Shown: piece by piece, positions 17,335 through 28,230 of the stretch
Layout of the letters: every line of letters starts with the position of its first letter
How positions within the stretch are numbered: the first letter of the stretch is position 1
Origin: Anolis carolinensis
Taxonomy: Eukaryota
Assembly (NCBI RefSeq): GCF_035594765.1
Contig: NW_026943824.1
Location: 7,954,317-8,018,316, forward strand
Reading direction: 5' to 3'
Length of the DNA stretch: 64,000 nt
Notes under the pieces: generated by a model
Told to the model about the DNA's origin: nothing
Databases searched by the model: none
Seen by the model: the letters and a program-made list of their open reading frames with translations, nothing else
Translations under genes and position numbers: made by a program

Positions 17335-17625
17335 AAGGCTCCCAACAAAGGATTCCCCTAGGCAGGAAGCAGCCAGGCTTTGAAGTTACAAGGCTATTCA
17401 GTACTCATCAAGGTGGCCAATGGCAACATTCACACTTGCCTCAGGCAGACCCTGAACATTCCAGAGATATATAAACCCCACTTGCCTAGTTTCCAACAGA
17501 CCTCACAACCTCTGAGGATGCCTGCCATAGATGTGGGCGAAACGTCAGGAGAGAATGCTTCTGGAACATGGCCAGACAGCCCAGAAAACTCACAGCGATT
17601 CTGGCCATGAAAGCCTTCACAACAC
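17335..17625 (+). mobile_element. Penelope-like pLTR fragment
   Basis: Homologous to the non-coding part of 751-1010 (reverse strand); carries an intact hammerhead motif. Confidence 0.75.
17509..17549 (+). ncRNA. Minimal type-I hammerhead ribozyme
   Basis: cct-CTGAGGA-t-gcctgc-catagat-gtgggc-GAAA-cg-TC-agg: core boxes, helix II, palindromic ACGT helix III, helix I cct/agg. Confidence 0.75.
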
Positions 17626-17808
17626 ATTTATTATTTTTATTATTATTGACACAACGATGTTGTATGACACAGCAAACAAGATAGATATGCTGGATTTCGT
17701 ACCACAAAATCACAAGTCGAACACTTCCCAAGTGTCTAGGACTGTGTGATGTATTTTCGGATGATACACGCAGATCCCAGTAGGGTGGCCTTTTGCTATT
17801 ATTATTAT

Positions 17809-17841
<33 letters not shown>

Positions 17842-18624
17842 AACTAAGCAGGGCCATCTGTCAGGAGGGTGCTGGCTGTGCCTTCCTGCCTGACAATAAG
17901 GAGCTGATAAGGGGCTGGACTAGATAGCCCTGGGGACAGGATCTCTTACAGCTCTATAGGTCTTTAGAAGTGTCCATTCTTGAGATGCCAGGCTTGGAAC
18001 CAAGGGAGATTTCCCTGCAAGGGACCTTACTGTGTTTCCTGCAGGAAGGAAGGAGTGGGCCTTCCTCCCCTCCTGTCTGCGGCCGCAGCCCAGCCCTGTG
18101 GCTCCTGGCACTGAATGGAGGAAAAGGAGGAGGAGGAGGAAGCAGGCCCTCCAGCCCACTCTCCGCCTTGCCTTTCTTGCCTTCCTGCTCGGGCTGGGCC
18201 TGGCAGGGGGCCATGCAGGAATGGCTCAGACAGGCTGGAATGTGGGAGTGGCTCCCTCTTGGGGGGCCCAGGCAGGAAACCATAGGACCCCCCCCCCCCC
18301 CCAGGGAATACAGCTCAGCTGCAACACCAGCAAAGGAATACTCCCACACACACACACTGGACCTCCAAATTGCCAATAACAGCAGCAATGAAAAAGGGAG
18401 GGGGGTGTCTCCCAAGGGAGAAAGGGAGCAGCTGCAAGGGTCTTCCCTTATACTTTGGAGGAAAGGAGGGACACCTTTTCCTCTAGGGTGAAAACAAGGT
18501 CCTGGTCTAGAAATATAATGTTTGGGCTTTAAAAAAAATCCGGTGCAGAATAACCCATTTTCTGTGCAGGGAGATACCAAACAAGCAAACAAACAAAAAC
18601 CCCTAAATCAAACCATTGCATATA

Positions 18625-18931
18625 CAGTAAAGTCTCACTTATCCAACAGAAACGGGCCAGCGAATAGGTTGGATAATCAGGAGGGATTAAGGAAAAGCCT
18701 ATTAAACATCAAATTAGGTTATGATTTTACAAATTAAGCACCAAAACATCATGTTATACAACAAATTTGACAGAAAAAGTAGTTCAATACGCAGTAATGC
18801 TATGTAGTAATTACTGTAGTTACGAATTTAGCACCAAAATATCATGATGTATTGTAAACATTGATTACAAAAATGCGTTGGATAATCCAGAACATTCGAT
18901 AAGCAAGTGTTGGATAAATGAGACTCTACTG
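18625..18931. mobile_element. Tc1/mariner (pogo/Tigger-like) MITE
   Basis: TIRs CAGTA(A/G)AGTCTCACTTATCCAA; TA flanks. Confidence 0.82.
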
Positions 18932-20438
18932 TATATTTATCCGGGAGGGAATTCTTCAGAACAAAGTCCTGAGAGATATGGGGGATCAGGCTAGACCTCA
19001 CCCTTCAAGCCTTCTGCATACAATTGAAGACATGGCTTTTCCAACAAGCCTTTGGCCATATTTAGTTTTTTTACGAATACATATGAGGACCATCAGATTC
19101 TCTATCAAGCACTTTACACATCTGAGATCGAGTACTGCTGTTTTTATCTGCAGCAATTGTTATATTTTACTGTTTTTAATCAGGGCATATTGTGAAACTG
19201 TGATGTTATGTTGGCTGCTTGTTATGTTTTGTTTCTGCACTTTTTGTATTTTGCATGTTGCACTTCGAGTTCCTCGGGGAGATGGTGGCAGCGTATGAAT
19301 AAAAGTTTATTATTACTATTATTATTAAAGTTGTGCTGGGAAACTGCACAGAAATGCCTTTACAAAACAGCCAAACTTTTCACCCCGCTTAAGGAGCATC
19401 AGAGCCTCCTGTTCCTTGCAGACCTGTGAGGACGGCCTGGGCCCCTTGGCAGGCAACGGCTGGTTCACCCTGTGCTCATTTGCATATGCTAATGGGACAG
19501 AGGCCAAAGGGATGGGAGGGGTCTCCATGCCCACTTACTAGGAGGAAGAGTGGGGTCCCCCCCCCCGCAAATCCATGGGGATTGGGAGGAAGGAGTGGGT
19601 GCTGCAGCCAAGGCTGAATTCCTGAGCTGCTTCCCTGAGAGGCACCTTGGGTGGGGCGCCTTGGACACGAAGCGGATCCAGAAGGGCCCCCCTTCCCTTC
19701 CCCGCTTCCAAAGGCGGCTGCAGAGGCAGAGGCTGCCAAGCCAAACTCCGCCTGGAGCCCCACATTCCTGGGAAAAGAGGCCTTCCCAGAATCCAGAGGA
19801 ACCGGAACAGCCAGAGACCCAAGCCTCCCCCTCCCCGCCTTCCTTCAGTGCTGCCGCCACTGCCTCCTTCCAGGGCCCCACCCTTTGGGTCACAGCCGCA
19901 GGGAGGGAGCGCAGGCCAAGAGAAAGAAAGAGAGAAAGACAGATCCAGGAAAGTGGGAACCAACACCATGTTGCTGCAACACCCAAGCGTTCACTCCCTG
20001 ACCTTTGCCCTGGAGTGAAACCCACCCCTATAAATCCCAGCAGAGAAAAAGGGAGGTTTTCAAAGCACTCAAGAAAATGGGTCAGGGTCCGCCTGCAGAA
20101 GCCCCACAGGGAGGCACCCCCCATAGCTATACATGGCAGCCTTTTTGTGCAGTGGACTCACAGGCACCCTGCTCCTCACTCCCATCCTGCCTTGAACTGA
20201 GGCACGCCATCCCAACTCTGCCCCAACTGAGGGACAGGCAGGTGACCCCTTTCTCCCCTTTCCTGGGCCCTTTTGCCTCGATGGGGGTCGGGGTGTGGAG
20301 AGGAGGGGGCCCAAATCACCCAAGGCCTCTGGCGCAGAGTTGTATAGGAATTCCAGCCTGAACAGACAGAGGATATGGTAGCTACCTATTTGGGGGGGGG
20401 GGGGGTGGAGTCTTATTTGTGAGCCCCTACTTGGGGCT

Positions 20439-20680
20439 TCGGGCCCCTGATGGCACAGTGTGTTAAAGCGCTGAGCTGCTGAACTTGTGGACCAAAAGGT
20501 CCCAGGTTCAAATCCTGGGAGAGGAATGAGCGCCCACTATTAGCCCCAGCTCCTGCCAACCTAGCAGTTCTAAAACATGCAAATGTGAGTAGATCAATAG
20601 GTACCGCTCCTCCGGGAAGGTAACGTCCCTCCATGCAGTCATGCCCACCACATGACCTTGGAGGTGTACCTTAACCTATA
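20439..20680 (+). mobile_element. Sauria SINE with internal deletion
   Basis: TSD CCTACTTGGGGCT at 20426-20438 and 20681-20693. Confidence 0.85.
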
Positions 20681-20909
20681 CCTACTTGGGGCTCCCCAGA
20701 TACAGACTGCCTTCTCTTAGGAATCCCAATGGGCCATGATCCTAGGGCCAAGTCCAAGAAGGGACGTGTCTTAAATCCTTTAGGGGAAGGTCTAAGATAT
20801 TCCTTCCATTTGGACCTGGTTTGAAATGAGTTGAAGCTGCCTCGTTTGAATATGAAATGAAAGCCACTTATTAGTTAAATTAAATTTGTTATAAACATGA
20901 GTTATAAAT

Positions 20910-26535: not shown

Positions 26536-26578
26536 CAAGCTGCCCTTCTCCAGACCGCAACTCCTATACGCCCTACGG

Positions 26579-26717
26579 CAGTGGTTCTCAGCCTGTGGGT
26601 CCCCAGATGTTTTGGTCTTCAACTCCCAGAAATCCTAACCGCTCATTAACTGGCTGGGATTTTCGGGAGTTGTAGGCCAAAACACCTGGGGACCCACAGG
26701 TTGAGAACCACTCACTG
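26579..26717. mobile_element. Short palindromic hAT/Charlie-like MITE
   Basis: CAGTGGTTCTCA...TGAGAACCACT inverted arms. Confidence 0.72.
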
Positions 26718-27248
26718 CCCTGTGGCAAAGTAATGCAGGGACATCTATTTGGGAGGAGTGATTTCTTATGGTTATTTTATAATAATTATTATATTAATAA
26801 AAGTGATATTGATTTAGTAGAGTGTGGTTCAGGGGGTCCCCAGGGGCAACGGAAGGACTCAGTGGGCATCCTATCTGGATGAGGATGGTATTTTTATCAT
26901 TATTATTAATAATAAGTGTAGAATATTGAGAAGCTATAACAGGCCCTGCAGGTGTTTTGGATTTCAACTCCCACAATTCCTAACAACCACAGACTCCTTT
27001 TTCCCCTCGGCCGCTTAAGCTTTTGTATGAATTTTTTGCAATAAAAATTTATTATAAAAAGAATGCAGTTTTACTGCATTATATTATAATATATAATAAT
27101 AATAATCCTTTATTTGTACCCTGCCTCCATCTCCTATAGGGACTTGTGTTGGCCTACACAATTATATGGCAGTGTAGTAGTCATACGTTGTTGCTCCACG
27201 TCGAGTTGTAAGGAAAGGTGGTTAATAAATAATTTTTAAAAAGTAATA

Positions 27249-27571
27249 CAGTAGAGTCTCACTTATCCAACGTAAACGGGCCGGCTGAATGTTGGATAAG
27301 TGAATATGTTGGATAATAAGGAGAGATTAAGGAAAAACCTATTAAACATCAAATTAGGTTATGATTTCACCAATTAAGCACCAAAACATCATGTTATACA
27401 ACAAATTTGACAGAAAAAGTCATTCAATACACAGTAATGCTATGTAGTAATTACTGTATTTACGAAATTAGCACCAAAATATCACGATATATTGAAAATA
27501 TTGACTACAAAAATGCACTGGATAATCCAGAACGTTGGATAAGCGAGTGTTGGGTAAGTGAGACTCTACTG
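27249..27571. mobile_element. Tc1/mariner MITE
   Basis: TA|CAGTAGAGTCTCACTTA...TAAGTGAGACTCTACTG|TA. Confidence 0.85.
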
Positions 27572-27619
27572 TAATAATAGCTCTTTTTTCACCTCTCTCA
27601 GAAGCGAGACTCAAGGAAA

Positions 27620-27941
27620 AAAGGTAAAGGTTTCCCCTGACATTTAAGTCCAGTCATGTCTGACTCTGGGGGTTGGTGCTCATCTCCATTTCTAAGCTGA
27701 AGAGCTGGCGTTGTCCATAGACACCTCCAAGGTCATGTGGCCGGCATGACTGCATAGAGCGCCCTTACCTTCCCGCTGGAGCAGTACCTATTGATCTACT
27801 CACATTTGCATGTTTTCGAACTGCTAGGTTGTCAGAAGCTGGAGCTAATAGTGGGTGCTCACTTCGCTCCCGGGATTTGAACCTGCGACCTTTCGGTCTG
27901 CAAGTTCAGCATCTCAGTGCTTTAACACACTTCGCCACCGG
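27620..27941 (-). mobile_element. Sauria SINE
   Basis: TSD GACTCAAGGAAA at 27608-27619 and 27942-27953. Confidence 0.87.
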
Positions 27942-27999
27942 GACTCAAGGAAAGCCTCCCACAATTTGCAAGCAGCACAATTAAATATATTACCATGGA

Positions 28000-28230
28000 G
28001 TTGTGTGTTTTCCAGGCTCTGTGGTCATGTTCCAGAAGCATTCTCTCCTGACGTTTCGCCGACATCTATGGCAGGCATCCTCTGGTTGTGAGGTTTATAT
28101 ACCTCTCAACTCCTGAGGATGCGTGCCATAGATGTGAGTGAAACGTCAGGAGAGAATGCTTCTGGAACATGGCCATATAGTTTGGAAAACACACAACAAC
28201 CCTGTGATTCCGGCCATGAAAGCCTTCGAC
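28000..28230. mobile_element. Inverted Penelope pLTR pair just upstream of TFAP4
   Basis: Minus and plus hammerhead-type units back to back around 28095. Confidence 0.75.

Follow-up and report, generated by a model that had tools for sequence, protein, structure and literature searches.

Hammerhead-bearing end-pieces of Poseidon_Ac around GLIS2 in Anolis carolinensis show no detected strand preference of intact copies

The GLIS2 region and its hammerhead copies

The window, i.e. the whole stretch of 64,000 nucleotides of Anolis carolinensis DNA analyzed here, harbors GLIS2 on the - strand. Its first coding exon (16827..17058) was read by eye, and the gene name stems from a later exon. A splice acceptor just upstream of this exon (17059) implies an untranslated exon further up, and a - strand CpG island at 23500..24500 with a candidate splice donor at 23600 likely represents the GLIS2 promoter and first exon; this first exon and any antisense transcript are putative. 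At the start of the window lies a + strand coronin-type gene (WD40_4 match), which we take to be CORO7.

Hammerhead motifs are scattered around these genes on both strands. An ungapped scan of both strands with a threshold of at least 23 of 41 positions yielded ten matches, nine with 30-41 and one with 23 identical positions; the latter, at 63921, was set aside as a chance match. A preliminary description of this DNA had listed about ten copies, three of them intact. All nine for which it gave places were found, each shifted by a few bases at most, and two of the three are intact. The hammerhead core (C3-U4-G5-A6-N7-G8-A9, G12-A13-A14-A15.1, and U16.1-H17) is exact in the copies at 17509, 23254, 25607, 26042(-), and 28110, and broken in those at 801(-), 20996(-), 21115, and 28047(-). 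The complete set of stems I and II, an extra base after A9, the G10.1-C11.1 pair, and a palindromic helix III occurs only at 17509 and 23254, the sole intact ribozymes in the window. The third supposedly intact copy, at 28110, keeps its core, but stem II shows G-A and G-U changes and a C-A mismatch replaces the stem I pair beside the cut site.

Rather than standing alone, the motif is part of a repeat of 100-190 nt. The first intact hammerhead (17509..17549, +) is a minimal type-I hammerhead at the pLTR-ORF junction of the element Poseidon (PAc), with the element start codon at 17518 and a predicted cut after C17546. It resides in a 5'-truncated pLTR with tail (17463..17630, +) that ends at the distal priming site, enters AT-rich DNA, and would lie antisense in a putative GLIS2 intron 1. 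The second intact hammerhead (23254-23294, one loop change, predicted cut after C23291) belongs to a fragment of the short-tail class at 23209..23348 (+). Between two CpG islands, the fragment at 25543..25730 (+) carries a hammerhead (25607-25647) with a preserved core, whose palindrome was altered from ACGU to ACAU, a CpG-type change. A longer PAc remnant at 750..1360 (-) comprises a C-terminal piece of the endonuclease ORF (approximately 1015-1350), the pLTR, and a hammerhead at 801-841 damaged by G8A and a broken palindrome. Since this hammerhead lies between exons of the + strand coronin-type gene, outside GLIS2, it is an antisense copy, and a broken one. GLIS2 itself holds at most four of the nine copies, and the only sense copy within its putative intron 1 is broken.

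The remaining copies are parts of inverted insertions. The pair at 20904..21202, a single insertion, joins a heavily damaged hammerhead (20996-21036, -) to one with A6G (21115-21155, +). At 26003..26172, a copy that lost the closing pair of stem II and the palindrome (26042-26082, -) is linked to a + strand tail piece devoid of a hammerhead. The pair at 28000..28227, again a single insertion, combines a copy with a damaged core (28047-28087, -) and the 28110-28150 copy (+), its stems I and II broken. With 20996(-)/21115(+) and 28047(-)/28110(+) each counted as one event, the nine copies represent seven insertions. Five pieces of the same repeat lack the hammerhead (25173-25209, 26092-26172, 46164-46240, 46241-46298, and 57796-57852); those within 46160..46315, an inverted pair of tail pieces cut off inside the hammerhead, were absent from the preliminary description.

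Upon folding, the pair at 28000..28227 forms a long hairpin (-162.6 kcal/mol, z -23), which would bury both hammerhead motifs, and it is the source of a sub-threshold Rfam match to mir-2041. All matches to Rfam miRNA families in the window remain below the gathering scores and fall on inverted-repeat hairpins, including this 28.0-28.2 kb pair. In the Rfam scan that had been proposed, none of the 59 matches at E<=10 belonged to a hammerhead family, as is expected for a motif without helix III; the window motif is assigned to no Rfam hammerhead family.

Identity of the repeat

The preliminary description linked the motif to the minimal type-I hammerheads of Penelope-like elements. This link is correct and can be narrowed down: by eye, without an alignment tool, all 41 nt at 17509 are identical to the Poseidon_Ac hammerhead template in the accessible Methods text of PMC11167929. 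The tail of the 17509 fragment closely matches the same template by eye, and its start codon and cut-site spacing agree with the description given there. The hammerhead, its element, and its activity were already published in 2024 (Frangieh et al., PMC11167929, as far as the accessible text goes).

Coding remnants support this assignment. In 11 of 12 loci, one of the 11 being the window's own, the hammerhead follows an endonuclease ORF of the same strand at a distance of 160-170 nt; among longer loci, this spacing holds for three of four, with the fourth at approximately 740 nt. The Pfam family RVT_1 was found in all three long ORFs (E 1e-8 to 2e-14). One locus (L257) retains an open frame of 527 aa with RVT_1 (E 4e-13) and a GIY-YIG-like motif read by eye. 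Atlas neighbours carry RVT_1 and HTH_animal, and GIY-YIG occurs in 21-47% of the members of three clusters. Upstream of the pLTR, one ORF encodes a reverse transcriptase and, behind it, a GIY-YIG endonuclease, the GIY-YIG part being based on the motif read by eye and on the Atlas clusters; the Pfam GIY-YIG model matched none of the ORFs, and a Pfam search of the endonuclease pieces revealed no family. The four longest fetched loci are all 5'-truncated or broken, and of the ORF the window retains no more than the C-terminal piece at 1015-1350.

Copy number, ends, and decay

Genome-wide, the exact 41-mer is present in 12,566 copies (reversed control, 0), and 30,024 copies have an intact core (controls, 0), numbers that greatly exceed random expectation. 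The 3' ends of 158 copies form two peaks approximately 35 nt apart (60/158 at +70-79 and 67/158 at +100-119), conservation collapses directly after the second site, and the copies end at the two priming sites published for PAc (PMC11167929, accessible text). According to the same source, the PAc protein nicks AT-rich DNA and begins reverse transcription inside its own RNA, priming either at 111-118 nt within the ORF or at another site close by, which bounds a 30-40 nt tail. With priming inside the RNA and the hammerhead just upstream, every new copy, however short, carries the hammerhead. Both orientations occur in 23 of 74 clusters, in 14 of the 74 within 300 nt, and tandem arrays of the repeat exist (L028/L029 and a MAD1-family gene).

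Damage to the copies is mostly CpG decay, with substitution of 15-38% at CpG columns and 3.0-4.5% elsewhere. By simple counts, the core carries slightly less non-CpG substitution (29/953) than the sequence around it (115/2579).

Folding and cleavage

The proposed fold, with a stem I of 3 bp, a stem II of 6 bp, and an empty helix III with palindromic ACGU, follows from the sequence, as do the cut sites after C17546 and C23291 given in the preliminary description. Its stem II is the best fold of its segment (-5.8 kcal/mol); an alternative with a 4-nt loop was 4 kcal/mol worse. In sequence context, the active form is not favoured (pairing probability 0.00 for stem I and 0.16-0.42 for stem II), and for a natural tandem pair the forced dimer reaches -27.9 kcal/mol versus -47.5 kcal/mol for the best fold, all energies ignoring tertiary contacts and proteins.

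The expectation that the RNA alone would cleave is contradicted by published single-copy RNA: in the accessible text of PMC11167929, RNA with the identical 41 nt is cleaved only in the presence of the PAc protein, C3G and G8C each abolish cleavage, the double mutant regains part of it, and the cut coincides with no RNA-seq read ends. The hammerhead would then be active only together with the PAc protein, and introns presumably tolerate sense copies since unaided folding or cutting of the motif within host pre-mRNA is rare.

A role of the two intact + strand copies in cutting an antisense or bidirectional-promoter transcript of GLIS2 appears exceedingly unlikely. The intact copies adjoin the CpG island, and in humans a GLIS2 antisense RNA exists, both of which would suit such a co-option. 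However, approximately one third of the sampled copies are intact (44/133), so that two of nine need no explanation; moreover, the two copies are 5.7 kb apart, have ordinary truncated ends and flanks diverged like those of other copies, and in context adopt folds other than the active one.

Distribution of intact copies by strand

The preliminary description further noted that intact copies lie on the + strand, antisense to GLIS2, which applies to both 17509 and 23254, and proposed that ribozymes able to cut the pre-mRNA had been purged. Selection of this kind, which would have removed or broken hammerheads capable of cutting host pre-mRNA and spared those in antisense orientation to GLIS2 and other genes, is very improbable. 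In the window it is in line with the two antisense intact copies and the broken sense copy in the putative intron 1. The strand difference there (intact 2/5 vs 0/4) yields p=0.28, or p=0.12 with the three copies formerly counted as intact; the copies are not independent, and damage is just as frequent in antisense orientation, as seen at 21115 in GLIS2 and at 801 in the coronin gene.

The suggested test of strand bias was run on eight genes of known strand (1,432 kb) with 133 copies, 77 of which come from one gene. Two Cast-family genes and a GPC1-type gene were fetched in part, with long stretches left out; the first GRIN2-type exon, which bounds that gene, was recognised by eye, a Pfam search of it finding no family. 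Excluded were 50 kb beside the window (L140-L144), where ADCY9 ends within approximately 7 kb and other genes follow, the fetched bases beyond the gene bounds of three glutamate-receptor genes, BLAST matches not spanning the whole core, and TRAPPC9, for which the family search gave one exon only. Intact copies amount to 21/60 in sense and 23/73 in antisense orientation (p=0.71), and per insertion to 20/47 and 19/50 (odds ratio 1.2, 95% interval 0.50-2.95). Exact copies (9/60 sense, 11/73 antisense) are distributed likewise, and the result was unchanged under three energy cut-offs. Scored by the core only, the difference runs opposite to purging (43/60 sense vs 35/73 antisense), with p=0.008 when copies are counted and p=0.13 when insertions are. 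Sense copies in the GRIN2-type gene are intact in 4/4 cases, and the MAD1-family gene on C15 contains perfect sense copies in an intron, among them a tandem pair with a spacing of 135 nt (C15:3646329). Scanned apart, 37 overlapping exon-flank loci (118 kb) contained five distinct copies, two sense and three antisense, none intact.

Two trends lean the other way: copies are somewhat more numerous in antisense (73 vs 60, p=0.30), and divergence is slightly lower in sense than in antisense units (0.053 vs 0.062, p=0.10; p=0.72 in single-orientation clusters), as a slow loss of old sense copies would predict. In addition, tandem retrozymes are scarcer in Xenopus introns than between genes, according to the accessible part of a 2026 preprint. 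Against purging also stands the cleavage published for PAc, which depends on its protein and leaves no RNA-seq ends at the cut in the accessible text of PMC11167929. A strong purging effect is thus largely refuted, the 133 copies showing no deficit of intact sense copies; the odds-ratio interval is still compatible with a two-fold deficit, and a weak bias may exist. The intact + strand pattern near GLIS2 is likely due to chance. No literature on strand bias of these copies was found among the mostly non-subscription papers covered, and the accessible part of PMC3365414 held nothing usable on tolerance of intronic cleavage.

Relation to known hammerhead elements

As in Poseidon_Ac (PMC11167929, accessible text), the window copies show a 41-nt hammerhead in which the start codon heads stem II and the cut follows 26 nt after it, pLTR and tail, two classes of 3' ends, and, in the 17509 fragment, an AT-rich junction. 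Unlike the consensus, they are truncated and mostly mutated, with flanks differing by several per cent. With the min-HHR of metazoan PLE pLTRs, as far as described in the accessible text of PMC4209133 (Cervera and de la Pena 2014), they share a short stem I, a long stem II, the extra base between positions 9 and 10.1, the G10.1-C11.1 pair, an empty helix III with a palindrome, dispersal as thousands of single copies, neighbouring copies in opposite orientation, and little or no activity as RNA alone. The 30,024 core-intact copies exceed the 2,000-9,000 reported there for Schistosoma, coelacanth, and Xenopus, with differing search methods. Non-LTR retrozymes likewise consist of short hammerhead units from PLE pLTRs (bioRxiv 10.64898/2026.07.22.740005, accessible part), and tandem arrays of 135-220 nt units of the window's repeat occur elsewhere in the genome; the window copies, in contrast, are single or inverted and form no head-to-tail array.

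Intronic ribozymes conserved by their hosts, of which CPEB3 is an example, occur as single copies on the sense strand and persist across species. The window family resembles them in placing a self-cleaving motif within a gene intron, but is young, multi-copy, found on either strand, and decaying.

Origin and significance of the copies

Very probably, the nine motifs are end-pieces of Poseidon_Ac with its hammerhead, likely derived from truncated or partly inverted insertions and likely undergoing neutral decay, with no detected strand preference of intact copies. It is very improbable that the approximately 30,000 core-intact copies, many of them sense in introns, act as latent cut sites, active only where the PAc protein is made (e.g. 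the germ line) and cutting host pre-mRNAs including transcripts of the GLIS2 region, while sense copies are selected against too weakly, or have been for too short a time, for 133 copies to show it.

The new fact is a small, negative one: host introns tolerate intact hammerheads in sense orientation, as would suit a ribozyme that stays inactive unless the protein of its element is present. If genome-wide purging were true after all, or if host transcripts were cleaved in response to the PAc protein, the family would provide the largest natural test of in vivo cutting by Penelope hammerheads.

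Hammerhead copies in the window

All nine hammerhead copies named in the preliminary description are present in the window, and each was judged by comparison with the copy at 17509 as reference. Core, stems and palindrome are kept in two plus-strand copies (17509 and 23254). The other plus-strand copies show an A6G change (21115), loss of the palindrome (25607), or a kept core with a C-A mismatch at the cut-adjacent stem I pair and a broken stem II (28110); the minus-strand copies at 801, 20996, 26042 and 28047 are all damaged. This per-copy scoring yields 2/5 intact copies on the plus and 0/4 on the minus strand, so that the three copies initially counted as intact, among about ten, are reduced to two among nine, stems I and II being broken at 28110. 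Both intact copies do lie on the plus strand, as had been stated; for the strand contrast, Fisher p is 0.28 (0.12 with the initial count of intact copies), and seven insertions account for the nine copies. An Rfam search of the window returned 59 matches at E<=10, with hammerhead families absent among them.

The window also harbors other repeats and coding sequences. Palindromic short repeats of another family (7424-7564, 26579-26713 and 58572-58702), likely miniature DNA transposons, are the source of sub-threshold mir-5408/mir-3160 matches, and related arms flank CpG islands at 23.4, 29.3 and 58.6 kb. Pieces of a different non-LTR retrotransposon with a weak zf-RVT match are located at 2367-3166, 8800-9046, 9259-9505, 17640-17886 and 26170-26416, one of them starting directly after the 17509 copy. 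A long acidic, glutamate-rich frame (42592-44043, plus strand) upstream of exon 50512-51360, which we take to be sarcalumenin-like, is likely an alternative acidic domain of that gene. An adenylate cyclase gene, presumably ADCY9 (59078-60883 and the adjoining locus L140), ends at most ~7 kb from the window end; mammalian ADCY9 is far less compact. Some 21-22 kb past the window end (L142, contig C15), minus-strand open frames of 1,261 and 342 aa have, by eye, the appearance of a Ty3/gypsy LTR retrotransposon.

Identity of the hammerhead-bearing repeat

The copies are a real and already known feature, with element, ribozyme and activity in print. The motif is surrounded by a repeat of 100-190 nt, and at 750-1360 (minus strand) an ORF piece is followed by this repeat. 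Relatives of the ORF piece amount to 32,394 first-look candidates in the genome, 150 of which were scored; in 11/12 loci with such relatives the ORF is followed, at a distance of 160-170 nt and in the same orientation, by the hammerhead. All three longer relatives encode an RVT_1 reverse transcriptase domain, downstream of which a GIY-YIG-like motif is recognizable by eye; the Pfam GIY-YIG model had zero matches in the element ORFs, and their Atlas neighbours are RT/HTH_animal/GIY-YIG proteins. Genome-wide there are 12,566 occurrences of the exact 41-mer (6,339 plus, 6,227 minus) and 30,024 of the core pattern, against 0 for the control patterns of both searches. Compared by eye, the same 41 nt are present in the RNA template for Poseidon_Ac of Anolis carolinensis in the Methods of PMC11167929, to which the pLTR (terminal repeat) and tail of the window repeat are also closely similar; this match points to an anole genome. 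The proposed link to minimal hammerheads (min-HHRs) of Penelope-like elements, a class described in 2014 (PMC4209133), is thus borne out.

Gene context and strand distribution

GLIS2 lies on the minus strand, its first coding exon having an acceptor at 17059. Exon 1 would be situated in the CpG island at 23.5-24.5 kb, which contains a candidate donor at 23600; if so, four copies (17509, 20996, 21115 and 23254) lie within GLIS2, and the four between the two CpG islands are all damaged. The 801 copy is antisense within a plus-strand coronin-type gene. It had been supposed that intact hammerheads able to cut host pre-mRNA are removed from the sense strand, and strand bias was followed over 1,432 kb between the exons of eight genes found by family search, presumably GPC3/4/5-like/6, MAD1L1, GRIK3-like, GRIN2A and GRIA3, orientation being taken relative to the located gene.

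This region holds 133 copies covering the core, in 74 clusters, a single gene contributing 77/133. In the direction of purging, copies overall lean antisense (73:60, p=0.30) and divergence is slightly lower among sense units (p=0.10), yet intact fractions are alike (sense 21/60, antisense 23/73, p=0.71), as are exact copies (9/60 and 11/73). Counted per insertion and strand, 20/47 sense and 19/50 antisense are intact (p=0.68; odds ratio 1.21, 95% interval 0.50-2.95, with which a two-fold strand effect is compatible), and three energy-based definitions of intact leave the result unchanged (p 0.54-0.82). The core alone is kept in 43/60 sense versus 35/73 antisense copies (p=0.008; per insertion p=0.13), a contrast opposite to purging, the per-copy figure being influenced by one damaged antisense array of seven copies. 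Substitution rates reach 15-38% at CpG columns, equally on both strands, and 3.0-4.5% at others. Strand purging is therefore not supported, neither near GLIS2 nor across the eight genes. Copy density differs about eightfold between introns of the large contig C3 (7 in 400 kb) and of the small contigs C12, C14 and C15 (126 in 1,032 kb).

Cleavage, copy structure and mobility

According to PMC11167929, the PAc protein of Poseidon_Ac introduces nicks into AT-rich DNA and initiates reverse transcription within its own RNA, either 111-118 nt past the ORF start or at an adjacent second site bounding the tail. The ORF begins at the head of stem II, with the cut 26 nt past the start codon; cleavage occurs only upon PAc addition and is abolished in core mutants, in vitro insertion does not depend on the hammerhead, and RNA-seq reads that start or end at the cut are absent (PMC11167929). 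In context, the active fold is disfavoured by computation (stem I probability 0.00, stem II 0.16-0.42), and a naturally occurring tandem pair, when forced into the dimer, lies ~20 kcal/mol above the best fold, both being secondary-structure estimates only. Such predictions agree with the protein requirement and with the low RNA-only activity described for min-HHRs (PMC4209133).

Inverted pairs within 300 nt are common (14/74 clusters), and the pair at 28.0-28.2 kb is computed to fold into a single long hairpin. Head-to-tail arrays also occur. At G000:C14:21,677,200-21,682,000 (L028/L029), at least 12 units of ~210 nt each carry a Poseidon_Ac pLTR piece and the hammerhead region; judged from sequence, this retrozyme-like array may be a natural substrate for dimer cleavage. 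Intronic sequence of the MAD1 gene harbors 135-nt tandem arrays with five perfect antisense hammerheads (C15:3,596,000-3,597,100) and a perfect sense pair (C15:3,645,200-3,646,900), the unit running from just upstream of stem I through the distal priming site. In a 2026 preprint, tandem retrozymes are connected with PLE pLTRs and reported to be fewer in Xenopus introns (bioRxiv 10.64898/2026.07.22.740005).

Since the motif overlaps the start codon, an aid to translation initiation is a possible role; ribozymes with this function are mentioned in the available part of PMC13725137, which contains no mention of Poseidon_Ac. In the 17509 copy, start codon (17518) and cut (17546) have the published spacing. 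The 3' ends of 158 copies form two peaks, 60 at +70-79, a position a few bases too low owing to a sequence difference of the query in this part, and 67 at +100-119, directly past which conservation of the repeat collapses. Spacing and end classes fit the published PAc mechanism. Copying by PAc would begin just 3' of the hammerhead, so that even the shortest insertions include it, which may explain its high copy number.
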